DNA from: a virus
DNA: 64,000 nucleotides
Virus record (IMG/VR): IMGVR_UViG_3300045988_141143
Reading direction: 5' to 3' (one strand)
A program made the position numbers and the translations under genes. The notes under the pieces are model-generated. The model was not told where the DNA came from. It searched no databases and saw only the letters and a program-made list of their open reading frames with translations. Of the stretch, positions 5,974 to 63,976 are shown piece after piece (the first letter of the stretch is position 1; every line of letters starts with the position of its first letter).

Positions 5974-6519
5974 TTAAATTGTTAGTCGTACTTTTTCGGG
6001 ATAACCTGCCGTAATATCATAAGCTATCAATGAGTCTATCGTCTGTAACTCCGCAACCTTATCAAGATGGGTCTGCGTAACATTGTAGCAGTCTTTGGCG
6101 TAGACCTCTATCTTGCTGATAAGGTCTTGAGCTGTGTCAATAGGCAGGGTATAACACTCACCGTCGAGCCACAGGGTCGTTTCCGTTCTCCCCATTCGTC
6201 TCAGTCGCTCGTTGCCCTGATACACTCTGTCTCTTGTCTCGAAGTCGAGCCAGTGAGCCTCGTCGTTGAGATAAAACGTATTCACCTCTGCGCTCTTATC
6301 GTACTCCGTTATCTGCTCGATGCACTTGATTCTCAGAGCCTCTGTCAGCTGTTCTTCTGTGGGCACCTCATCGGTATTCATACCGAGCAGCACGCAGTCA
6401 TACAGATACTCACCGTCTTCAGTCTTGCGTTCGTTCACAGCAAGACGCACCTCATTATTTTTCCATGTCGCAACCTTCGTTTCCAAAGGCGTAGCATACA
6501 ATTCCTTATATGTTATCAT
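5974..6519 (-). CDS. Tail-fiber-associated protein, paralog B
   Basis: C-terminal KDCYNVTQTHLDKVAELQTIDSLIAYDITAGYPEKV matches paralog A. Confidence 0.4.
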   Translation of the reverse strand: MITYKELYATPLETKVATWKNNEVRLAVNERKTEDGEYLYDCVLLGMNTDEVPTEEQLTEALRIKCIEQITEYDKSAEVNTFYLNDEAHWLDFETRDRVYQGNERLRRMGRTETTLWLDGECYTLPIDTAQDLISKIEVYAKDCYNVTQTHLDKVAELQTIDSLIAYDITAGYPEKVRLTI

Positions 6520-42199: not shown

Positions 42200-45100
42200 T
42201 TAGCCCTTGCCTTTCATAAACTGGTTGGCTTTTGTCATGCTGTCATAAAGATTACCACGGCCATACATGTCTATCTTTGCGTAGATAGGTTCATTCAGTC
42301 GGTCGAGGAGGGTCTTGACGGCTTGCATGAGAGCGGCTTGGCTGGCTGTGTTGTTAGCGATTACATTGTTGGCCGCTGGTGCGCCCAACAGAAGATTACC
42401 ATTTTCTGCTGTAAAGCCCGCTGCTGCGTCCCCCATTGCGCTCGCAAGCTCGCCGACATTACCATTGTCAAATGCGCGTCTTGCTGCACGTCTGCCTGAA
42501 TAGTTGCTGTCGTAGTTGACGAGAGCCTTGAGGAGTGCCGGATTGTTCATCATCATGGCGTGTGTCGTCTCACGACCGATTACTATCTCGGGTCCATTCT
42601 CTGCTACAAGAGAAGGCTGGCCATTGATGGTAGTAGCCCTTGGAGTAGTTATCATTTGCACGCCAGTTTTTTGCCTGCCGTCATCCTCTGTTGCCCAATA
42701 AATATCACCATTGTCGGCTACAAATGGCTTCAGGTCTTGCACGTTACCGCTGTCATACGTAAGCATACCTGAAACGAGCTTCGTGTTTTTAGATACAGAA
42801 GAAGATTTCTTACTGCTGCTGCTGAAAGCCGAATTAAGTGCCCACTGAAGCAAGCCCATCAGAGTAGCCATCACTCCTGCTGCAGCAATAGGACCAGCAA
42901 TAGGACCTAAGAACTCAAAACACTTCGCCATTGCTCCCGCGATAGAGAATGTCACCTCTTGGTCGGTGCGGGCCGCGTCCGAGTTTGCCACATCCTGATT
43001 GTTCTGTTCTTTAGCTGCAAGATTGGTGGTCATAGCCGTCTGGGTCATATCAAGAATGGCATTCTGCGCTATCTCCGTACTCTTACTTTGCTCTTTATTG
43101 CCGGCATCGGTGATGTCAGTTATATTCTTGACACCTTGATGGGTTTCTTTCTCTCTATCCTTAGCTCCCTTTTTAACCTCTTTGCTGAGTTCTTTTTGAT
43201 GCTTCCTTTCTTTCTTGAGCTGCTTGGCTTTTTCCTTGTCGTCTCCAGTTTTCTTTGAAGAACCGCCAAGAGTGAAATTGGTATTCATCAAGTCACCCAC
43301 AAGGCTGCCTCCGATACCGGCTACGGCATCGGACAGAGTAGTACCACCTGTAATAGCACCAGCAACGGCTGTTCCCGCTTGAGAGGCTGTATCAATACCG
43401 TAAGTCTCCTTGTTATAATCATGGATAGTACCGTTTGGATGACGTTTCTTCCATGCAGCAGGAGGCTCAGTATTTGCAAGATTGTTGCCGTTGGCATCAA
43501 TATACTGACCTCCTACGACACGTACCCACATCGGGTTTTCAGCCGTGCCCAGGTTACGCCAATCCATATCAATGGTAGTAGCATTAGCATTAGCATTGGC
43601 TCTCGCTGCATCAATGCCAGGCTGTGCGTTTTTCTTGCCTTGTTTCGCTCCGGCATCATTGATGGCTTTCCACATTTGGGTGTTCACGTCATTTAGCGCC
43701 ATATTAGCCCACGACTCAATCATAGACTTCAGGGCATTCTTGATGCTCTCCTGTGCGCTTGATACGTCAGACTCCATCATGGCGAAAGCCTTGCCTACCT
43801 CTGCACCGAAGGTTTCAATAGGCTGTACGAGCTGCTGCATCTGCGAAAGGCGGTTCTTCATCGCCGTCGCCATTTGGTTGGCATAAGCAAGTTCGGCCTC
43901 CTGGCGAGCCTTATCCGCCTCGTCTACCAACTGCTTGTTACGAGAGTTCTTCAGACAGAAGGCATAGTAATCTTCTGCCAGCTGCATCTTCAGCTTCAGT
44001 AGTTCTACCTCTGGGTCAGCGGTAAGGTCGGCAAGACCGAGGTTGGAAAGAAGGTTGGTCCGCTTGCCGAAGAGAGAACTTTCCTGCTGCATCTTGCGCA
44101 GCTTTGCCTGCTGATCGAGATTGCGTTTGTTGTTTTTCCAAAGAAAATCAGAAATCTTCTTGGCTTCATCGTATTCTTTTTTCTGTGCAGCTGTATATTC
44201 ATCAACATATTGGATAAGCTTGTGATAGAATAGCTTTACATTCTGCTCAGTCTCGCCCATCAACGCAAGAAAGACAGAAGGCATCTGCATATAGTCTTTT
44301 CCAAATAAGAACTGAAGCAGCTTCTGCTTCTCCCCGTTTGTCTCAAAAAGTGCCGCCATTTGTGTGCGAGCCTTTTCCAAAACTTTTATAACATCAGCCC
44401 TATCTTTATTTAGCGTTTCAAGCGAAACGTCTGCAAAACGAGAATTTATTAATCCCAAGAAAGAATTTTGTTGAACTATGCCTGTGTAATCATGTTCAAG
44501 TAGCTCCTTCCGACGTTGCTCTATGCGTTTTTGAATCACATTGCTTGAATCGTTCTCTTTTGATGAAGCATTCAGCCACATTCGGTCAAGATAAGCACGG
44601 TCGCGTTCATCTGATTTATATCCGACAACTTGCCCTTTCTTAATTTTAGGCATTTGCTTTAATAAATCAGAACGAAGTTGTGCTACATTAGTATTCAATA
44701 TGGCATCCTCAAGCATACGAGACTGAGATTGTCCAAACTCATCGTCTTTTTCCTTGCGATATTTGTCTATTGATTTTTTAAATTTATCCCAAGTTTTATT
44801 TCCAAAGACAATAGACTGCTGCGCAGCTGCAAGGGCAGCATCCATTTGTATTTGAATGTCATTAACTGCCTGTTCTTGTAATTCTTTCTCTACACCCTTC
44901 TTTGAAAGATCCTCAACAGTAGCTGTCATTTGGCGCTTATAGAAATTCTTTATCTTCGTAATAAACTCAGATATGTTGTTGCGAGCATCATCTTCAGGAG
45001 TAGTTGTGTTACCTCCACCACCGTTGCCGCCATAAACTTTTTGACCTACAGCCATTCCATCTCCTACATCAAGTTTAGCCCCAAACTTTTTCCGTAAGGC

Positions 45101-48100
45101 TTCTTCTTGTGCGTTTATTTCATCCAGTCTTGACTGAGCCTTATCTCGCTCGCGTTTCGCAGCCGCACGTTGTCCTGCCTGTCCGATTGCACCCTGTGCC
45201 TGCCCTGGCATCATAGCACCACCAGAGGTCTGAATATATCTTCCATTAGGAGCGTTCACGTGTGTATTTGCATACGCATCTTCTTTTTTCTGCAAATCAA
45301 GAATAGCATCCACTTTCTCACGACCCAATTCTGCCAACTTAGAACGAGCGCCCTCAAGTTCGTAGTAATCTTGTAGACGTTGAAAGTTTTTCTCCCATGC
45401 CTTAGTGTTTTCCTTAACAACACCCGTCTCTGTGTTAATTTTAGCGTTGAGGTTAGGAATAGCGCCATTCAATTTATTCATAGCTTCGAGGCGAAGATTC
45501 ATTGACGCAGAAGTATCGTGCATAACATTATGCAGACGCTTCAACGATTCTTGTTCCTCCATAGCCTTACGCTTACCTTCTTCTTGTACTTCGTTAAGCA
45601 CGCGCTGTCCTGCGGATAAACCGTTCAAAGAGGAAGAATATTCGGCAAGTTTTACGACCAATATACCCAATAATCCAATTAATCCTCCCATAATACCCGC
45701 CTGCTTGGCAAACGACAAGCCATTAAATGCAGCTTTAGTTTTGGCAACAACAGCCCCCAGAGACAACATACCTCCCTCTAATCCCTGAACATAAGTAAGC
45801 AGTTTTGCAAAGCCACCCGCTAATCCTGCCATACTAATCATGGTGATCAACGTAGGAAGTATGCTCAGTAGCATCTTTATAGAGGCAAAGAGCAGCGCTA
45901 ACGCTACACGAACCTCTGTCATAAAACTCATACTGGTTGTAAGTTCCTTTACAACTTCAAACCAAGCTTTTGCTATATCACGAATAGGTCCCGAAGCCGC
46001 ACTTGAAGAAACAAACTGTTTTTCAAGAAGGTTGTTAGCCCTCTCCATATACGCGGCTGCAGTTTCCTGCTGCATATTATACTCAACCGTAACAGCAGAA
46101 CCTTCATTAAAAGCTTTATTAGACTCCTTTACCGCTTTAGTAAGCATACCATTCTTGGCAGCCATTGTTACCATAGTTTTTACCAAACGAGCGCCATCTG
46201 AGCCTAAGTCCTTAAATAAGCCATCAAGAGCAAAAAGGTTTTTAGTTTCGCCCATTCTGCGGAAAATGGTTAAGATTGCATCCATACCTCTTCCACTCTC
46301 GATCATCTTCTTCAAAGAACCAGAAGCTATACCGAGTGATTTTTCAATAGGGCTTGTACCTTTACGAAGCTCTACAACCAACTTTCCAAAAGCTGTTGCT
46401 GCAACTTCTGGCTCAAGGGCCATTGAGTCAACAGCCGCACCAAGAGCCAAAATATCTGGGGTTGTTAAAGCCGCCTGTTCGCCCAATGCAAGCATACGAT
46501 TAGAGAAATCCACAATCTTTCCGCTTGTCGCTGTAGATGTAGATGCCAGTCGGAAAATCGCAGAGCCTGTTTTCAGCATAGCCTGCTCCACTCCATATTT
46601 ATCCGCAAGACCCATCACCTCAGTAATCTTAGCAAGAGCCGTCAACGCTTCATCGCCCAAATCCTCTTTCAATGCGACGTTCACCTGGTCTGCGGCACGG
46701 ACGAAGCCAGCTAAATTTTGAGTTGTAACACCAAGTTTAGCTCCCGCATAGGCCAAGTTGTTCAGTTCTTCTATGCTTGTACGGGTATCGATTTTAGCAA
46801 GTTCCTTTGATAAATTTGCTACTTCGTCAGTTGTAGATAAAGCGACCTTACGAATATTAGTAAGCTGTTCGCTATACTTCATATTAAGACGAAACAAATC
46901 CATAAAGTACGTTTTAAGCTGATTGAACATCGCAAACAATCCGACATAAGCCGTGAGGTTCTTCAGTGCTGTCTGCCATGCGCTGCCATGCTTGTTGGCC
47001 GCACCCGTCGCCTCGTCGATGTTCTTCTTCAGCTCCTTCATCGACTTCTGCTTGTCGGCAAACTCCTTACTCTTGGTATTGATTTGGTTCAGTTCCTCTT
47101 CGAGTTGCTTGTAGGCACGGCGCAGTTCGTCGAGGGAGGCCTTACCCTGCTTGCTACGGGCGAGAATGTCGTTAAGGGCACTCTGCGACATACGGGTCCC
47201 CTTGAGGGTCTGTTCGAGCATGGAGTATTGGCGACGGAGGTCGGCCACATACTTGCTGCCAGCAGGGAGTTGCTGAATCTTCTGCTGTATCACTTCCATC
47301 GTGCGCTTGATGTCTTCGCCCGAAGCCTTGTTAGGTTCAGCCAATACCTGCTTCATCTGCTTCCAGCTCATTGATGCTTTCTGAGTCTTACCCGACACAG
47401 CCTCCAGCCGCTTCTCTATCTCCTGGAGCTCGCTGTTGTATTTTGCAATATCAGCCGAATTGCCTGTAGGTGTGTTGTCGCGAGCCTCAGTAAGCGTAGA
47501 CTTGGCTCGGCGCAAATCAGATGCTGAAGCGTTTTGACTGGTTACAGTCTGATGTGCCTCTGCCACGCCCATTTTGCCCTTGCGTCTGTCCTCCTCGGCT
47601 TCAAGTTGCTTCAATGTGGCGAGATTCTGCTGATAGGACGCATCCGATTTTTGCAGCGAACCTACGAGGTCACGCTGTTGTTTGATGGCCTTGTCGAGCC
47701 ATTGATCGGATTGGTTCTTTACATTATTCAAGCCATCGGCTATCTTGACATACTGACCTTCAATAAGGCGCATTTGATCGCCCACTTGCTTCATCTCGCT
47801 TCGTATCTGCTCTGCCTTCTTCAGGTCGGCATCCGAGCCGGTGAGCTTAGCAAGAGCCGACTTGCCCGAACCCATAGCACGACGCAGGTCACGAAGCTTA
47901 GTGTTGGTGAGGTCTTGCACCACCTCGCTCAATCGCTTCGTGTCCTCGATATTGTCACGCTGCACTTGCGACAACGCCTTCAATGTGCTCTCTGCCCTCT
48001 TACACTCAGCAGTGTTAGCCTGTCCTGCGGCAGTCATCTTCTGGATGTCGGCAGTATATTTCTGCACAAGATTGTCAATCTCTTCCAACACCTTCTTGGC

Positions 48101-48151
48101 TGTAGAGGCATTGGCCGTGATTACTACTTTTGCTAATTTTTGTGTTGCCAT
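42200..48151 (-). CDS. Tail tape measure protein
   Basis: 1983 aa, extensive coiled coil with a central hydrophobic/glycine segment. Antisense ORFs are rejected. Confidence 0.7.
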   Translation of the reverse strand: MATQKLAKVVITANASTAKKVLEEIDNLVQKYTADIQKMTAAGQANTAECKRAESTLKALSQVQRDNIEDTKRLSEVVQDLTNTKLRDLRRAMGSGKSALAKLTGSDADLKKAEQIRSEMKQVGDQMRLIEGQYVKIADGLNNVKNQSDQWLDKAIKQQRDLVGSLQKSDASYQQNLATLKQLEAEEDRRKGKMGVAEAHQTVTSQNASASDLRRAKSTLTEARDNTPTGNSADIAKYNSELQEIEKRLEAVSGKTQKASMSWKQMKQVLAEPNKASGEDIKRTMEVIQQKIQQLPAGSKYVADLRRQYSMLEQTLKGTRMSQSALNDILARSKQGKASLDELRRAYKQLEEELNQINTKSKEFADKQKSMKELKKNIDEATGAANKHGSAWQTALKNLTAYVGLFAMFNQLKTYFMDLFRLNMKYSEQLTNIRKVALSTTDEVANLSKELAKIDTRTSIEELNNLAYAGAKLGVTTQNLAGFVRAADQVNVALKEDLGDEALTALAKITEVMGLADKYGVEQAMLKTGSAIFRLASTSTATSGKIVDFSNRMLALGEQAALTTPDILALGAAVDSMALEPEVAATAFGKLVVELRKGTSPIEKSLGIASGSLKKMIESGRGMDAILTIFRRMGETKNLFALDGLFKDLGSDGARLVKTMVTMAAKNGMLTKAVKESNKAFNEGSAVTVEYNMQQETAAAYMERANNLLEKQFVSSSAASGPIRDIAKAWFEVVKELTTSMSFMTEVRVALALLFASIKMLLSILPTLITMISMAGLAGGFAKLLTYVQGLEGGMLSLGAVVAKTKAAFNGLSFAKQAGIMGGLIGLLGILVVKLAEYSSSLNGLSAGQRVLNEVQEEGKRKAMEEQESLKRLHNVMHDTSASMNLRLEAMNKLNGAIPNLNAKINTETGVVKENTKAWEKNFQRLQDYYELEGARSKLAELGREKVDAILDLQKKEDAYANTHVNAPNGRYIQTSGGAMMPGQAQGAIGQAGQRAAAKRERDKAQSRLDEINAQEEALRKKFGAKLDVGDGMAVGQKVYGGNGGGGNTTTPEDDARNNISEFITKIKNFYKRQMTATVEDLSKKGVEKELQEQAVNDIQIQMDAALAAAQQSIVFGNKTWDKFKKSIDKYRKEKDDEFGQSQSRMLEDAILNTNVAQLRSDLLKQMPKIKKGQVVGYKSDERDRAYLDRMWLNASSKENDSSNVIQKRIEQRRKELLEHDYTGIVQQNSFLGLINSRFADVSLETLNKDRADVIKVLEKARTQMAALFETNGEKQKLLQFLFGKDYMQMPSVFLALMGETEQNVKLFYHKLIQYVDEYTAAQKKEYDEAKKISDFLWKNNKRNLDQQAKLRKMQQESSLFGKRTNLLSNLGLADLTADPEVELLKLKMQLAEDYYAFCLKNSRNKQLVDEADKARQEAELAYANQMATAMKNRLSQMQQLVQPIETFGAEVGKAFAMMESDVSSAQESIKNALKSMIESWANMALNDVNTQMWKAINDAGAKQGKKNAQPGIDAARANANANATTIDMDWRNLGTAENPMWVRVVGGQYIDANGNNLANTEPPAAWKKRHPNGTIHDYNKETYGIDTASQAGTAVAGAITGGTTLSDAVAGIGGSLVGDLMNTNFTLGGSSKKTGDDKEKAKQLKKERKHQKELSKEVKKGAKDREKETHQGVKNITDITDAGNKEQSKSTEIAQNAILDMTQTAMTTNLAAKEQNNQDVANSDAARTDQEVTFSIAGAMAKCFEFLGPIAGPIAAAGVMATLMGLLQWALNSAFSSSSKKSSSVSKNTKLVSGMLTYDSGNVQDLKPFVADNGDIYWATEDDGRQKTGVQMITTPRATTINGQPSLVAENGPEIVIGRETTHAMMMNNPALLKALVNYDSNYSGRRAARRAFDNGNVGELASAMGDAAAGFTAENGNLLLGAPAANNVIANNTASQAALMQAVKTLLDRLNEPIYAKIDMYGRGNLYDSMTKANQFMKGKG

Positions 48152-58409: not shown

Positions 58410-59048
58410 TCACTCATCGGCGGGAAAGCTGATCTTTGCATCTGCCAGTCTTTTCTTGCAGATCACACCAAGGCCTTCAATGACACCCAAACATGAGCTA
58501 CAATCCAAACAGTAAGCATAGCCAATCATGGCGCTAACGGTATTGTATGGGCATTTCTCCCCCTTTATCGCATAAAGGTGTTTGTCCTCCATAAAGGCGT
58601 GGATTTCTTTTTTTAACCCATTCAGTATTTTGTTCTCTCTTTCCAGCTCGTCGCAATGGTCGCGCATCTGCTGCATCTCAACAAGCGACTGCCTTGACTC
58701 GCGCTCCTCCTTACTGCCCAACTGGTGAGCGACATCGTTGTAATCATCCGTGAGCTTATGCACAAGCTGCTCAAGTTCTCCGTTCTTTCTTTCCAGCTCA
58801 TCACAATGGTCGCGCATCTTCATCATCTCGCCAAGCGTCTGCTTGGAAGAGTTTTCATCCTTGCGTGCCTCCAGTCCATGCTGTTGGCGCACGGCATCGT
58901 TGTAATCGTCCATGAGCTGATGCACACGTTGCGTCATCTCAATGTTCTCTGCCTTCAAGTCGGCTACGATATAGGAAAGAGCCAACATACGTTTGTTTTC
59001 TTCTGTTGTCATTGTTTCTTGGGTTTTATGTTTGTTATTCATATTCAT
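58410..59048 (-). CDS. Coiled-coil protein with an internal ~40-aa tandem repeat and a C-terminal Cys cluster
   Basis: Repeat units HQLMDDYNDAVRQQHGLEARKDE...MRDHCDELERKNGELEQLV and HKLTDDYNDVAHQLGSKEERE...MRDHCDELERENKIL. C-terminal CPYN...CLDCSSC. Confidence 0.4.
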   Translation of the reverse strand: MNMNNKHKTQETMTTEENKRMLALSYIVADLKAENIEMTQRVHQLMDDYNDAVRQQHGLEARKDENSSKQTLGEMMKMRDHCDELERKNGELEQLVHKLTDDYNDVAHQLGSKEERESRQSLVEMQQMRDHCDELERENKILNGLKKEIHAFMEDKHLYAIKGEKCPYNTVSAMIGYAYCLDCSSCLGVIEGLGVICKKRLADAKISFPADE

Positions 59049-59213
59049 ATACTATATGCGATGTGGTATTGCCCAGTCCGTCGCGAGGGTCGGTAATACC
59101 TATCCCGACCATTGTCGTCACGGCATTGGCTATCTGCTTGCGCGGTCGACTCTTTACGAGGCCCTTGCCGTCCTTGCCGCTGCGTACCCAACCGATGTAA
59201 TACTTGTCAATCA
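59034..59213 (-). CDS. Small ORF (59 aa) ending VYEYE, overlapping both neighbours by ATGA-type junctions
   Basis: MIDKYYIGWVRSGKDGKGLVKSRPRKQIANAVTTMVGIGITDPRDGLGNTTSHIVYEYE. ATGATTGA and ATGAATATGAATAA overlaps. Confidence 0.25.
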
Positions 59214-60019
59214 TCGGTCTGTGGTATGGTCAGATACATTCGTTCATTAGCCTTGCACGACTCCCCTTGCATTCTACCTGCCTCTAACCCTGCTTTCTTT
59301 AGAGCTTCGTCACGCTCATGCTCCAGTTTTATGCAATATTCAGTCAGGCGATTATATTCTTTCTGCAAGGCGTTGAAATCCTCGCGCAGTTGCTCGGGAG
59401 TGTGAGTTTCTGAATCTAATGGCACAAGACGCTGCTTTCTCTTGTCCCATATTTTCCCGATTCTCTCCACGGCATTGTTGAGAAGTTTTTCTTCCGTAGG
59501 CGTGGCGTATCTCAGTTCGATGCTTACTTCTTCTGCGCATGTACCGAGAAGATCAAGATGGACGTTAGGAGTAAGTTCGTCGCTGTTTTTGCACAAGCAG
59601 GCGTATGTTCTTATCTTGGGATAAGAATCTATAAAATCCACTTCATTGAAAATCACAATGTAGGTCAGGATGTTGCCATCTTTATTTTTAATATCCATTG
59701 CCACGATGTCGCCGGGCTGGAAGTTGAGCACATTCCAATGCCGGTAAAGATGCGAGAGAAACAGCATACACTCTCCTTTTTCAAAGTTCGCTAAACGCCC
59801 ATTGCAACGAAAAAGAATGTAGTGTGCTTCATCCTCGTCAGGAATGGAGGGACCCACCAAAATACCCGAAGCGTTTGTTTCTTTCACATTCAGATAGCCA
59901 AACAAAGGTGAGTAAAGCGTGTCACCTTCAGTCAAGCCGTAGAGGAAGGCTGCCATTTTTTCAATCTCGAATAATTTAGCTTTTATCTCAGGGATGCTTC
60001 TTGTTGCTTTTTGTTTCAT
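59207..60019 (-). CDS. Hypothetical protein
   Basis: 270 aa. Confidence 0.35.
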   Translation of the reverse strand: MKQKATRSIPEIKAKLFEIEKMAAFLYGLTEGDTLYSPLFGYLNVKETNASGILVGPSIPDEDEAHYILFRCNGRLANFEKGECMLFLSHLYRHWNVLNFQPGDIVAMDIKNKDGNILTYIVIFNEVDFIDSYPKIRTYACLCKNSDELTPNVHLDLLGTCAEEVSIELRYATPTEEKLLNNAVERIGKIWDKRKQRLVPLDSETHTPEQLREDFNALQKEYNRLTEYCIKLEHERDEALKKAGLEAGRMQGESCKANERMYLTIPQTDD

Positions 60020-60363: not shown

Positions 60364-60503
60364 AATTTATTTCTCCTTTTATAATTCAACAAACACGCAA
60401 ATTCCACCACTTGCAGCGATCAGTGCGTTTACAAGCTTACTCCCATCCTCGCCATTCGAGCCGATGGCTAACGGGATGCACGGAAATGTAGATGTGGGTC
60501 ATG

Positions 60504-60965
60504 TTACTCTTGAAGATACTCGCCGTATAGTTTCCACTCCTTATCATGGATGTTGCCGACAACCTCAAAGCTCTTCATCTTCTCTTGCAAGAGATCATCT
60601 GGGATGCCGTCTTCAAGACCACCTACGTCAGAGTAGGGATTTTTTACCGTAACGATACCAAAGCAAGCTTTCTTCTCACAATAATACACTACGGCATAGT
60701 AGTCGTCGCAAGTATTGTATTCGATTCTGCTATACGGATATTCGTTCGATCGCAATACGTCGCCTTCATAAATCTCCTTGCCGTTCTTGTCGGTGAAGCC
60801 AGTGAACTGGCATACAGTAGAGGGGTCAACAGCAAACGTAAAAACAGGCCGTCCATCACTGACTGGATTATTTTTTACGAGAGTCTGGTCACCCACATGG
60901 GACAAATCGCCGTAATTCCACTTCCCGTCCTCTATACTCTTAGCCTTAAACTTAATTGTTCTCAT
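60504..60965 (-). CDS. YopX-family phage protein
   Basis: MRTIKFKAK...GKWNYGDLSHV and FTGFTDKNGKEIYEGDVL match the YopX N-terminal signature. Confidence 0.55.
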   Translation of the reverse strand: MRTIKFKAKSIEDGKWNYGDLSHVGDQTLVKNNPVSDGRPVFTFAVDPSTVCQFTGFTDKNGKEIYEGDVLRSNEYPYSRIEYNTCDDYYAVVYYCEKKACFGIVTVKNPYSDVGGLEDGIPDDLLQEKMKSFEVVGNIHDKEWKLYGEYLQE

Positions 60966-61125
60966 AATTCTCTATTTTAAATTGTTACTCATATTCTATC
61001 AATACAATGGTGTGCTGTCCGTGCTCGTCGTAGAGTCCTGCCATCCGTCGTAGCGGGCGGACAATGCCGTGGAATACCCCCGACGAGGGCAAAGCTGGGA
61101 TGTGCGTAACACGAAAGGAATTTGG

Positions 61126-61296
61126 TTACACATAATCGGGATTGAAAAATATGCCATTTACACCTTCAATATCGATGGTGTTTCTGTTACAGTCAAAATC
61201 AGCATCACAAAACTCGTCGCCATTGACTGTTACTTCCAATTCGCCATGTTCTTTACGCAAAAGTTCAAGGCGGTTTATAAGTTCGCTTATATTCAT
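61126..61296 (-). CDS. Small ORF (56 aa)
   Basis: MNISELINRLELLRKEHGELEVTVNGDEFCDADFDCNRNTIDIEGVNGIFFNPDYV. Preceded by an upstream fragment ending ALIEYL*. Confidence 0.2.
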   Translation of the reverse strand: MNISELINRLELLRKEHGELEVTVNGDEFCDADFDCNRNTIDIEGVNGIFFNPDYV

Positions 61297-61306
61297 ATTA
61301 TTTTCT

Positions 61307-61928
61307 TTACAAATATTCTATCAATGCCATATTATCCTTGCCTACTGACGTAAGGGTGTTGGTTGTACTTCCCCCGTTTATCTCCATTCGCTGACAGAAG
61401 CGTCCGTTGGAGGGATGCTTGCGGTCGGACGGATTGTCGGGGTCACGGCCTCGGAAGGCTGCTATGCGAAAGTGTAGCATAGGAGGTTGTCTTTTGTTAC
61501 TGTTGTTATCGAATTGCTCCACGCCCACGGACTTGGGCGGTGATACTTGTCGCTGTATTTGCACCCTCCCCGGTCGCCATGTTCACGACGGAAGGTTTTG
61601 GCTTCCTCGGTGCGGTAGTGGACGAGGACGGAACGATTAATCATACTCTATCAATATTTTCGGTTTATCCACGTCGTGACCTTTACCTCCCCCGGCTATG
61701 CACAAGGCTATGCCGCGCGGCGACACGATGATGCCGTTCTGCGAGGGGCTGTAGGAGCCGAGGATGATGGGGCGAGGGTTGTTATTCATATATTACAATT
61801 ACGCCAGTGGCTTTGAAATTTGCTCCTTGGGTTGAAACGTCAAGAACATCGTATGCACCCTTCTTGAAATAATTGGCTTTGATAGTGCGTGATGTGCCAT
61901 CGGATTCGGTGTTGAAAGGGAATGTCAT
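61307..61928 (-). pseudogene. Chain of overlapping small ORFs resembling C5-methyltransferase target-recognition-domain fragments
   Basis: Translations include GIIVSPRGIALCIAGGGKG (compare M.HhaI STRGIAITLSAYGGG) and GGSTTNTLTSVGK (TL motif). Stops and starts overlap as ATGAATAA and ATGATTAA. ORFs at 61782-61928, 61637-61789, 61462-61644 and 61307-61564. Confidence 0.3.
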
Positions 61929-62103
61929 AATTCTACTGCTACAAAGAACACGTCGCTGCAATCGGTGCGCGACATGATAGTTACTGCTATACCGTGAAAT
62001 GCTCCGTTGAAGCGTTCTGCGCTGAACATCGAGGCAGGGCAGGTGAGCAAACTACCCCCCAATCATATCAGCTATGATACGGATTACACGGTCGGGTGGA
62101 TTA

Positions 62104-63419
62104 TCAGTTCTCATTCTTCCTCTCCATATTCTCCTTGAACATTTCTCCGAAACCATCCCAATAATGAGCGTCCATCCATTCGGGCGAGGATAAAAACTGC
62201 TCATACATCATTGTCGCAGGTATCGTCCGTAGGTATTTCTCGCAAGCCTTAACGTCTTTGTCCCACAAATCCATCCGCTCCATTTCTATCTGAAAATACG
62301 TCTTGAGGAACATTGCCGCCTCATGTGTCGGTGGCAGGTCGAATTGAAGGAATAAGGCATTGTCGGAGTCGTTTGCCTTGAGGAACTTGCTCACGGCATC
62401 GTCCTTGAGGAAATAGCGGTCAGACACTTCCTCTTCGAGCACGTCTTCCAATCGGGTAAGCAGCTCGAAAGGTTCTGGGAACTGATAGTCGAATGCCACG
62501 TCTCGGCGCATGGAGAGGCAGAACACACGGTCGCGGTTTTGTGGCACACCGTAGTTCTTGGCGTTGAGTCGCGTCCAACGGCTCACATAGCCGAGCGACG
62601 AGAGTTTGTCGAGCCACTTCTGAAAGTCTGGCAAGAACTTCTGGCTTACCAGTGCCGCCACGTTCTCCTGCAAGAGATACTTCGGGCGAAGCACCTCCAC
62701 AGCATCCGCCACACGCCAAAGCAGTGCGCTTCGGGTGTCGCTGCCCTCCTGCAAGCCCATTTGCTTGCCCGCCTGACTGATGTCCTGGCAAGGCGAGGAA
62801 TAGGTGAAGAGGTCTACTTCGCGGCCTTCGAGCGAGCTTTCCACCTCGTGCCAGTCAATCTTGGTGATGTCGCCCAGGGCGCAGTCGGCAAACTGAGGGA
62901 AGACGAGGTTGTGCATCTGACAGGCGTATTTGTCGATGTCGCTCCATCCTATACATGTCCATCGGAAGTCGGGATGCCACTCGCGGAGCACATCGGCTGC
63001 CATAAGCTGCGAGTCGTAGCCGAAGAACGTGGTAAGGAATATCTTCTCCTCGTTCTTGTTGGCTGCGGTGGGCGGCAGGGCGGGTAATGTGTCTTCGAGG
63101 TCGTCGAAGAGCGAGAGTTGCTTTTGCTTACGAGGTTTGGGCGTAGGATAGAAAAGTTGCTCGTAGATGTGGGCCAACACGTCCACCACGATGCTGTTTC
63201 CGGCTTGCTTGTACTGCTGTGAGGCAGATATAGCCATGTCTTCGGGCTTGCCCTTGCCTTTCCAGTCGGGCAGACGTTCGGCTGCTTGAGCATTGCTGCT
63301 CTGCATCGTGCCGATTACATTGTCACGAACGCCATCAGACGAAAACACTCCTTGGGTGTGAGCTTGCGGATGGCATAGCTCTTGATGGTGCGGTCGGTGA
63401 AATTGAGTTTTGTAATCAT
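62104..63419 (-). CDS. DNA (cytosine-5)-methyltransferase with motifs IX-X at the N-terminus and an apparent frameshift
   Basis: Motif IX RKLTPKECFRLMAF lies in an ORF starting at 63419 and ending at 63315. The next frame carries motif X YKQAGNSIVVDVL, then SSPCQDIS (PCQ), LQENVAAL (ENV), QNRDRVF, and a TRD start DVAFDYQFPEP...VSDRYFL. Confidence 0.55.
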
Positions 63420-63432
63420 ATTGTTGCTGTTA

Positions 63433-63585
63433 TTATTCGTATTCTATTAAAATTCCTGGAGCATGATTATCTGCCTTGACGCATCTATTTATTCCTTCTA
63501 ACGGAGGTCTTTTATAGTCAGGCGAAACATTCCAATAAATGCTCGATATTGCATGAGCGTGATAGTCTATTGTGATGTTATTCAT
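63433..63585 (-). CDS. Small ORF (50 aa) ending ILIEYE
   Basis: MNNITIDYHAHAISSIYWNV...PGILIEYE. Its start overlaps the upstream ORF stop (ATGAATAA). Confidence 0.25.
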   Translation of the reverse strand: MNNITIDYHAHAISSIYWNVSPDYKRPPLEGINRCVKADNHAPGILIEYE

Positions 63586-63709
63586 ATTCTTCAATCAAAA
63601 ATACATTTTGCTGCCACGAGTTGATTGTTACGGTCGGGCAAACGTCTGTACCTAATCGACCTCCATCGTTATTGCCACGAGGATATTGGTAGAAGTCAAG
63701 ATTAATCAT
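63578..63709 (-). CDS. Small ORF (43 aa), C5-methyltransferase TRD-like fragment
   Basis: MINLDFYQYPRGNNDGGRLGTDVCPTVTINSWQQNVFLIEEYE. CPTVT resembles the sPTLt TRD motif. Confidence 0.25.
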   Translation of the reverse strand: MINLDFYQYPRGNNDGGRLGTDVCPTVTINSWQQNVFLIEEYE

Positions 63710-63718
63710 ATTCTTCAA

Positions 63719-63976
63719 TCAAAAGAACGCTTCAGATTGCAAGTCGCCAATATAACAATAACGCTGCACTTCGTATTCGCTGATAAACATTCGCCAATTC
63801 TGTTCGTCATGATCGAAATGTTCATGTACGAAGCATGTACCACCGAGTCGCCAACAGAGAAGCGATCCTATGCAATGCGGTTGTTCTCTGGCTGGATGCC
63901 ATAACTGAACGATATTACGATATTCGGCTCTTTTATCCGTTTCTACATCGTCAGACAAGGAATCCTTAAAGCTCAC
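63719..63976 (-). CDS. Hypothetical protein
   Basis: 85 aa with several His/Cys. Confidence 0.3.
   Translation of the reverse strand: MSFKDSLSDDVETDKRAEYRNIVQLWHPAREQPHCIGSLLCWRLGGTCFVHEHFDHDEQNWRMFISEYEVQRYCYIGDLQSEAFF

Follow-up and report, generated by a model that had tools for sequence, protein, structure and literature searches.

The 64,000-nt stretch of viral DNA considered here (the window), deposited as IMG/VR record IMGVR_UViG_3300045988_141143, comes from a tailed phage and carries a methylase region whose features all lie on the minus strand. Judging from the sequences of the region and of its relatives, it appears on balance to encode a cytosine C5-methyltransferase (C5-MTase) in pieces, namely a permuted catalytic core devoid of a target recognition domain (TRD) and a set of separately encoded stand-alone TRD subunits, which are perhaps individually phase-variable. 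The TRD subunits are encoded by mini-genes, hereafter called cassettes, that stand in arrays on both sides of the core.

The permuted catalytic core

The C5-MTase catalytic core (62104..63419, minus strand) belongs to the Pfam family PF00145 and is interrupted in the window by a 1-nt deletion, so that it is read as two open reading frames (ORFs). The main ORF (62104..63348, minus strand, 414 aa) matches the PF00145 profile at an E-value of 1.3e-45, and the ORF of 34 aa (63315..63419, minus strand) matches positions 269-289 of that profile, its motif IX part; both frames thus gave a match in the per-frame profile check suggested in a preliminary description of the region, which had been made from the letters alone. 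The score of the core against PF00145 is 156.7 bits (cut-off 22), with the match falling in two stretches. In every relative the two ORFs form a single gene coding for 436-442 aa, and in the six homologues inspected, as well as at the examined loci, the product is one continuous protein beginning with MITKLNFTDRTIKSYAIRKLTPKECFRLMGVRDNV. A protein search with the core gave thousands of C5-methylase matches, and the best 120 are 84-97% identical to it and 412-451 aa long, nearly all of them 436-451 aa.

Compared to the locus L001, which shares a 98.4% DNA identity with the window, and to all the intact relatives, the window is one G short in a GGG run (ATGGCG instead of ATGGGCG), with the loss falling between 63331 and 63332. 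The deletion lies inside the range 63330-63345, where the preliminary description had located a frame switch separating motif IX from the other motifs, and putting the missing G back restores a core protein of 438 aa. Since the relatives are continuous in frame, the switch is a local lesion or a sequencing error and not a feature of the family.

Along the chain the motifs are arranged in the order IX-X-I-IV-VI-VIII. All the strings that had been listed earlier in this order (IX, X, I, PCQ, ENV, VIII) were found, namely RKLTPKECFRLMAF (IX), YKQAGNSIVVDVL (X), TFFGYDS (I), SPCQD (IV), QENV (VI) and QNRDRVF (VIII). The strings SPCQD, QENV, QNRDRVF, RKLTPKE and AGNSIVV are invariant across the relatives, so motifs IV, VI, VIII, IX and X have the form expected of C5-MTases. 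It had been stated beforehand that a single continuous frame coding for a standard-order enzyme would speak against the unusual architecture; the relatives do possess the single continuous frame, yet the order of motifs within it is permuted and not standard. Motif I of the family reads FSGYDS as opposed to FxGxG, with Asp in place of the second Gly, and the canonical single-chain relatives have it in the same form. In the window it is further changed to FFGYDS by the substitution S133F (about 63022-63024), which is unique among 71 sequences and is the sole window-unique change at a conserved column of the repaired 438-aa core. Because of the frameshift together with S133F, the window's own copy of the core may be inactive.

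When the intact homologue P0001 was aligned to canonical enzymes with blastp, its residues 128-364 matched residues ~10-250 of these enzymes, covering motifs I-VIII, and its residues 10-108 matched their C-terminal IX-X part. The canonical variable region of 80-325 aa, which bears the TRD, has no counterpart in P0001. According to these alignments, the core is a circularly permuted enzyme without a TRD. It begins 17 residues ahead of motif IX, the start sequence being MITKLNFTDRTIKSYAIRKLTP, and after motif VIII it contains a conserved post-VIII stretch, one strand and a helical tail of ~75 aa. No TRD is present in the part following motif VIII, and the earlier suggestion that the ORF enters a variable TRD before its stop was therefore dropped.

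The exhaustive search for relatives covered 1.8 billion representative proteins. Canonical-order relatives reach ~57% identity to the core, and five permuted single-chain relatives (P0133, P0142, P0173, P0245 and P0159) possess an additional N-terminal TRD of 55-75 aa. The start of the core coincides in the alignment with the end of the TRD in P0133, P0142, P0173 and P0245. These five proteins and L084 have the order TRD-IX-X-I-VIII, which is that of the type H enzymes, and by comparison with them the core is a type H enzyme minus the TRD. The earlier proposal of a circularly permuted M.BssHII-like enzyme is thus borne out by blastp as far as the permutation is concerned, but not with regard to the N-terminal TRD, which the M.BssHII type keeps and the core does not have.

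The AlphaFold2 model of the core has a predicted local distance difference test score (pLDDT) of 84.9 and consists of an N-terminal β-hairpin (residues 2-15), the helices of motifs IX and X, a disordered linker (99-110), a Rossmann-type domain (126-305), a strand (355-359) and the helical tail. The best folds found with Foldseek for this model are M.HhaI (E-value 1e-13), M.MpeI and M.HaeIII, the large domain thus having the fold of C5-MTases. The helical tail (62104-62330, minus strand) comes in three or four unrelated versions, if not more, among cores that are otherwise ~90% identical, as sampled in P0016, P0039, L015 and L018, and it is short in a distant TRD-less lineage (L085, L086); the arrangement with mini-TRDs seems not to need it.

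At two loci, L096 (L096:3001-4878) and L098 (L098:3001-4385), the core itself is divided into an IX-X protein of 117 aa and an I-VIII protein of ~330 aa, and from these split genes it seems that assembly without covalent links is already found in the clade. Between the two core halves of L096 there is a 185-aa ORF that was judged by eye to be HNH homing endonuclease-like, and a similar 103-aa ORF fills a cassette slot in L086 (L086:1527-1838); homing endonucleases may therefore help to fragment the methylase gene, as these two cases suggest.

Stand-alone TRD cassettes and their poly-G tracts

The cassettes were grouped into families by clustering every ORF ending in x-[LM]-I-E-Y-[D/E/K]-stop at 76 usable related loci, which were taken from viral contigs and on which the cassette statistics rest. 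This resulted in ~16 families (T0-T15) of mini-ORFs of 43-60 aa, each initiated by ATG and having the C-terminus x-L-I-E-Y-[D/E]-stop, in which the stop overlaps the next ATG by 8 nt (GAATATGAnTAA). Canonical junctions with this stop/start overlap number more than 380. Arrays of 2-15 cassettes (median 8.5, with ~3 upstream and ~6 downstream) are located beside the core at all 76 loci, and 409 of the 413 junction motifs are on the core's strand. At 64 loci of canonical single-chain relatives there are no such mini-ORFs, as against 4.1 per 10 kb at the cassette loci. The order of cassettes is largely syntenic, with presence/absence variation and with some families occurring on either side of the core, and the same arrangement is found in the lineage of L085 and L086, the core of which is ~46% identical.

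In public databases the mini-ORFs are labelled just as "hypothetical protein", and a Pfam scan of them gave no matches, because PF00145 does not model the TRD region. Profile hidden Markov models (HMMs) built for nine families were used to search single-chain C5-methylases with a threshold of 1e-5 on the independent E-value (i-E); all 58 locatable matches fell between motifs VIII and IX or, in the permuted P0159, N-terminal to motif IX, with the best i-E being 1e-16. When the cassettes of the window were searched with tblastn, they matched stretches within genes annotated as methylases in Dulem virus 39, Dulem virus 40 and Streptococcus phages. The homology of the mini-ORFs to TRDs, as established by these sequence comparisons, is solid. 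The preliminary description had pointed to TRD-like mini-ORFs on both sides of the core and had made the likeness depend on the outcome of profile searches, and the nine family HMMs uphold it. A by-eye likeness of SPRGIALCIAGGGKG to the TRD of HhaI is unsupported, the T0 profile giving no M.HhaI match among PDB sequences and one chance match at an E-value of 0.5. The only element common to all TRD families is the C-terminal strand, which in single-chain enzymes leads into motif IX.

The ratio of nonsynonymous to synonymous substitution rates (dN/dS) in 15 families is 0.05-0.24 in frame versus ~0.3-3.7, mostly 1-3, in the shifted frames. By this measure the cassettes are under purifying selection and are functional proteins rather than debris.

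In the window the array extends from 63722 down to 59035 on the minus strand and includes nine TRD cassettes, intact or frame-shifted, and one remnant. The mini-ORFs listed previously all exist, but the array holds more cassettes than had been listed. The xLIEY[DE]-stop junction occurs 6-7 times within 60985-63722 and nowhere else on that strand of the 64 kb. The possibility that it is a generic gene-start signal was considered and dropped, since on its strand it is confined to the methylase region of the window.

The upstream boundary of the array is a junction (63702..63722, minus strand) that reads LLIEEYD-stop, with the frame closed just upstream, and that carries the ATG of T4. Two intact mini-genes precede the core. 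T4 (63578..63709, minus strand) codes for 43 aa (MINLDFYQYPRGNNDGGRLGTDVCPTVTINSWQQNVFLIEEYE), has a dN/dS of 0.21, and its HMM matches nine single-chain enzymes between motifs VIII and IX, the best at 6e-12. T6 (63433..63585, minus strand) codes for 50 aa (...GINRCVKADNHAPGILIEYE) and has its stop 13 nt ahead of the core ATG, a dN/dS of 0.24 and HMM matches in TRD regions, the best at 3.5e-8.

The first downstream cassette (61925..62066, minus strand; MIGGG...GIAVTIMSRTDCSDVFFVAVEL) has a poly-G tract after its ATG (62055-62060) and is out of frame with 6 G in the window, whereas in L001, with 8 G, it is an intact ORF of 47 aa. It is followed by a mini-gene of 48 aa (61782..61928, minus strand; ...TSRTIKANYFKKGAYDV...ATGVIVIYE), which is T1-like by eye and was left unplaced by the automated family map; the T1 family has HMM matches in TRD regions, the best at 6e-10. 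The intact T0 (61637..61789, minus strand) codes for 50 aa (...IVSPRGIALCIAGGGKGHDVDKPKILIEYD), with Gly-Gly-Gly derived from an interrupted G tract (61689-61693) and with a dN/dS of 0.07, and a tblastn alignment including part of this cassette falls in the methylase of Dulem virus 39. The MINRS cassette (61462..61644, minus strand) codes for 60 aa (MINRS...WSNSITTVTKDNLL...) and overlaps at its 3′ end with the beginning of the following cassette, T10 (61307..61480, minus strand), which codes for 57 aa (MLHFRIAAFRGRDPDNPSDR...NTLTSVGKDNMALIEYL) and has a dN/dS of 0.20. T10 is frame-shifted in L001 though intact in the window, and it is its HMM that matches residues 357-402 of the Dulem virus 39 methylase at 1e-16, between motif VIII (184) and motif IX (460).

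Further downstream there is a non-TRD ORF of 56 aa within the array (61126..61296, minus strand; MNISELINRLELLRKEHGELEVTVNGDEF...), which is shared with L098 and absent from L001 and for which the sole Pfam match is weak and sub-threshold (AAA_assoc_C, E-value 0.04). The T2 mini-gene (60985..61133, minus strand; ...CPRRGYSTALSARYDGWAGLYDEHGQHTIVLIEYE) is broken by a 1-nt deletion in a GGG run, and a remnant of a T7 cassette is found at 60437..60502 (minus strand; MTHIYISVHPVSHRLEWRGWE-stop). An outlying mini-gene, T3 (59035..59214, minus strand), codes for 59 aa (MIDKYYIGWVRSGKDGKG...NTTSHIVYEYE) and is located 2 kb beyond the main array, from which it is separated by a YopX-like gene (60504-60965, phrog_98), an ORF of 96 aa and an ORF of 270 aa, with the stop of the latter overlapped by the T3 ATG. 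The T3 HMM matches the N-terminal TRD of the single-chain permuted P0159 at 5e-11.

Both window-specific 1-nt deletions, the one in the core (~63331) and the one in T2 (~61040), hit the same heptamer (GATGGGC to GATGGC), which could be due to chance, to a site being selected against or to a local artefact. In L001 the three GATGGGC sites are at positions 5997, 6573 and 8109, and the third of them reads AATGGGC in the window. A systematic base-calling artefact is unsupported, as the heptamer GATGGGC is preserved at six other sites in the window.

Natural fusions of neighbouring cassettes are rare and were seen in the public proteins P0351, P0322 and P0339 as MINRS+T10 (112 aa) and T1+T3 (105 aa). 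P0351 is a MINRS cassette fused in frame with T10, and in P0322 the frame changes at the MINRS poly-G tract, linking the MINRS N-terminus to T10 via an alternative frame.

The cassette zones contain 134 coding-strand G tracts of at least 7 nt versus 6 C tracts, and in 2.3-fold more flanking DNA there are 19 such tracts, G plus C. Gly-Gly(-Gly) in the TRDs is encoded by the tracts, and GGG is used for the first Gly in 110 of 273 cassette cases versus 25 of 506 in other ORFs. In the family they are 7-11 G long, with one of 22 (examples among loci L001-L080 are L017:7806, L009:5518 and L051:66), and those of the window are short, with 5-6 nt (62055-62060, 61689-61693, 61371-61375 and 61077-61081). 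The 651 cassette instances comprise 521 intact, 66 frame-shifted and 64 partial ones, and the reading frame tracks the tract length modulo 3. With tracts of at least 6 G, 59 instances are shifted and 42 intact, and with a shorter tract or none 7 are shifted and ~479 intact. Orthologous G/C tracts of at least 7 nt differ in length between relatives in 11 of 11 cases. Such poly-G tracts bear the signature of contingency loci and are candidate phase-variation switches for individual specificities; we infer that the variation may proceed in real time.

The preliminary description had also mentioned a shuffling TRD system. This was not confirmed, as the repeats are direct and the order of cassettes mostly syntenic, the variation consisting of presence/absence and of frame switching at poly-G. 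Inversion-type shuffling was likewise rejected: the repeats belonging to the cassettes are direct, and those found in inverted orientation are short and at chance level.

Proposed assembly in trans, its alternatives and its setting

If the pieces work together, the mini-genes would be translated separately, being coupled via the 8-nt stop/start overlaps (GAATATGAnTAA), and each TRD protein would dock non-covalently on the core beside the motif IX hairpin, rebuild the small domain and confer one recognition sequence. One core and n TRDs would then methylate n different sites, and the multiple specificities would shield phage DNA against many Type II restriction systems of hosts. The poly-G tracts would toggle single TRDs in and out of frame, making the methylation repertoire heterogeneous within the phage population. 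Of these steps, the separate translation of the mini-genes, the assembly of TRD and core in trans, the multispecific methylation and the anti-restriction role are ones that we infer from the arrangement of genes. Assembly in trans is favoured because the TRD-less core, which has no other means of sequence recognition, is strongly conserved, being found in hundreds of genomes, because the shared C-terminal strand is the one leading into motif IX in single-chain enzymes, and because the L096 and L098 cores are split and other C5-methylases tolerate both natural and engineered splits. C5-methyltransferases have so far been viewed as self-contained enzymes, and only tentatively can the widespread gut-phage lineage be suggested to possess a two-component C5 system in its fullest form, with each of the trans-docking subunits of 43-60 aa switched by poly-G and up to 2^n methylation patterns.

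Several points weigh against a methylase assembled from such pieces. To our knowledge, no solved or characterised C5-MTase carries its TRD alone on a separate chain. Motif I departs from FxGxG, though the canonical single-chain relatives are alike in this. The core and T2 of the window carry frameshifts outside long tracts, so the window copy may be decaying. In the AlphaFold2 model of the single-chain P0173 the TRD has a pLDDT below 50 and is uninformative on docking, and the conserved E-Y-[D/E]-stop could reflect a DNA-level constraint from the overlapping ATG and not a docking motif. Finally, long A/T tracts vary between assemblies too, and the differences in poly-G length may for this reason be partly due to assembly or sequencing errors.

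Purifying selection shows that the mini-proteins have a function, not which partner they have, and in the window most cassettes remain intact next to a core that may be inactive. The mini-proteins might accordingly act apart from the phage core, serving as decoys, as modulators of host methylases or restriction enzymes, or as DNA binders masking sites. This is unlikely, given the strict co-occurrence, on one strand, of the arrays with cores that are TRD-less or split and the absence of arrays beside the TRD-containing relatives, and given that the sole element common to the TRD families is the strand which runs into motif IX in single-chain enzymes. Moreover, such a core would have no sequence recognition at all, yet it has been conserved as widely as noted above.

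The geometry of the junctions between cassettes is uniform, with the next frame at +1, neighbouring cassettes are on rare occasions naturally fused in frame (P0351, P0339), and single-chain multi-TRD relatives exist, all of which would suit a fusion in cis, where frameshifting or bypass at the GAATATGAnTAA junctions yields one multi-TRD polypeptide joined to the core. We consider such recoding improbable. Between the last upstream TRD and the core lie 6-17 nt, with frame offsets 0, 1 and 2, so that a single recoding event would not fit, and cassettes located past the core stop cannot be joined N-terminally to motif IX. No in-frame fusion of a TRD with the core was found among the 76 close loci, the longer stop-to-stop frames being non-coding read-through. 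In addition, each cassette still has an ATG and a stop of its own, and the arrays are interrupted by non-TRD genes such as the 56-aa ORF, the YopX-like gene and HNH endonucleases.

It is very improbable that the cassettes are a silent reservoir recombining at direct repeats of ~20 nt into an expressed methylase, as in antigenic variation. Conserved direct repeats do flank each cassette, the loci differ in their cassette content, and there are families that can stand on either side of the core; however, a cassette is inserted in frame in the core at none of the 76 loci, there is no second C5-MTase in the 64 kb window, and the order of cassettes is mostly syntenic. No recombinase was seen among the array-adjacent ORFs that were read, though none was searched for, and stored cassettes would not need conserved ATG/stop overlaps.

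The least probable explanation, that the mini-ORFs are functionless debris of a frameshifted multispecific methylase, can point to the frameshifts in the window's core, T2 and first downstream cassette, to S133F and to the ~10% of cassette instances frame-shifted across loci, but is already contradicted at the family level by the low in-frame dN/dS of the 15 families (0.05-0.24), by boundaries, ATGs and stops conserved down to ~46% core identity, by the 521 of 651 instances that are intact and by the concentration of frameshifts in G tracts of at least 6 (59, versus 7 with a shorter tract or none). The word "decayed" in the preliminary description thus does not hold for the families, which are under purifying selection and keep the architecture at no fewer than 76 loci, and may still fit the window's own copy. 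The closest of the earlier readings was that of an SPR/phi3T-like methylase broken into cassettes: the TRDs are indeed homologous to the tandem TRDs of the Dulem viruses, but the whole is not decayed.

As for the origin of the methylase in pieces, the enzymes of Dulem virus 39 and Dulem virus 40 are of canonical order, single-chain and multi-TRD, with TRDs homologous to T10, T4, T6 and T1 and, in part and with tblastn only, to T0. The C-terminus of the Dulem virus 40 enzyme, ...YKLAGNSIVVDVLYHIFHKMFIAEPPQQKSRQLSLFDDL (...QLSLFDDL), recurs identically in the core, where it forms the X-to-I linker. Tandem duplication followed by fusion is a classic route to circular permutation, and the architecture probably arose in this way from a canonical multi-TRD phage methylase, with the IX-X end of the first copy being fused to the I-VIII start of the second one. 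The TRDs of the first copy would then remain upstream and those of the second copy downstream of the core, in agreement with the observed layout; one TRD set left on each side by duplication and fusion would be the reason why TRDs flank the core on both sides.

The genes of the window include those for a tail fibre and a head maturation protease, which identifies it as tailed-phage DNA. There is also a very large ORF of 1983 aa (42200-48151, minus strand), and no tRNA genes were found in the 64-kb window. Related phage contigs are ~50-105 kb long. A blastn search of the methylase region against 50,697 phage records gave no match, and a scan of viral contigs with P0207 as the query found nothing. 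Matches in genomes are confined to bins of metagenome-assembled genomes, two of which are Prevotella and the remainder probably mis-binned, and some cassettes bear the label "uncultured Prevotella sp." in public databases. The phage is a gut phage with probably Prevotella as the host, the assignment being tentative.

Comparison with known systems

Stand-alone TRD genes have no description in the full-text literature searched, with subscription journals being outside its coverage. If the TRDs do act in trans, the enzyme would be the first C5-methylase whose specificity subunits are detachable, and it would border on a new category once trans-acting specificity subunits were demonstrated. The Bacillus phage work left open in what way alternative TRDs share a single active site in multispecific methylases; the system would show this and would provide a natural plug-and-play scaffold for programmable cytosine methylation in which modules of 45 aa set the target. 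It would also explain how abundant phages of ~100 kb with probable Prevotella hosts face many Type II restriction systems, and would extend the known epigenetic systems by one that is phage-borne and phase-variable. Thousands of "hypothetical" phage ORFs of 43-60 aa would gain a function in annotation.

Type I HsdM/HsdS systems and phasevarions resemble the proposed system in combining a catalytic methylase with an exchangeable specificity determinant and in using homopolymer or repeat tracts to switch specificity genes. Unlike it, the Type I enzymes belong to the unrelated N6-adenine class, carry a pair of TRDs in one S subunit and are cellular and not phage-borne, and these systems vary for the most part through inversion or through repeats within one gene.

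Phage genes in pieces are also known, free-standing homing endonucleases splitting essential genes, and the receptor-binding genes of Campylobacter phages contain hypermutable poly-G tracts. As in the former, HNH-type ORFs are present here in cassette slots or in the X-to-I linker (L086, L096), and the split products presumably reassemble; as in the latter, the tracts would create phenotypic heterogeneity in the phage population. Most of the splits described here, in contrast to those in other phage genes, are without an endonuclease gene, and we know of no report of poly-G tracts in methylase specificity modules.

C5-MTases made of separate fragments have been described previously. M.AquI and M.EcoHK31I function as two polypeptides, and bisected M.BspRI, M.BsuRI, M.HhaI, M.SssI and M.MpeI complement in vivo (PMC3404938, PMC5944983). 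M.AquI is split into a chain with motifs I-VIII and half the variable region, plus a chain with the other half and motifs IX-X, and in M.EcoHK31I motif IX alone is on the small chain (PMC3404938). The natural and engineered cases have in common with the arrangement proposed here that C5-MTases are assembled non-covalently from separate fragments, with cuts in or beside the variable region included. They differ in that M.AquI and M.EcoHK31I do not have, as here, a small chain that is the TRD alone with IX-X-I-VIII kept on one chain, and in that all of them consist of two fixed fragments with one specificity, whereas here there would be a library of alternative subunits. We know of no case of a TRD alone as the small subunit, nor of a repertoire of alternative TRDs for one core.

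The permuted C5-MTases of type H comprise M.BssHII, M.Alw26I, M2.Eco31I, M.Esp3I and M2.BsaI, which start in the variable region and thereby keep the TRD N-terminal (PMC5944983). The core of the window family has motifs IX-X preceding I-VIII in one chain in the same way, the chain of the window itself being interrupted by the 1-nt deletion, but, unlike type H enzymes, it opens 17 residues ahead of motif IX, with no TRD at its N-terminus.

The Bacillus phages SPR, phi3T, rho11s and H2 reportedly encode multispecific C5-methyltransferases, known from the work of the Trautner laboratory. The enzymes of the SPR/phi3T type and the uncharacterised ones of the Dulem viruses are, like the system proposed here, phage-encoded and have one catalytic centre and several TRD modules of ~40-60 aa, each presumably with one specificity. 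All their TRDs, however, are placed between motifs VIII and IX in one chain of canonical order, whereas here each TRD has its own gene, the core is permuted and TRD-less, and the TRD genes are on both sides of it. By analogy, the system would work most like the multispecific methylases of the Bacillus phages, from which it departs in being neither a single polypeptide nor of canonical order.

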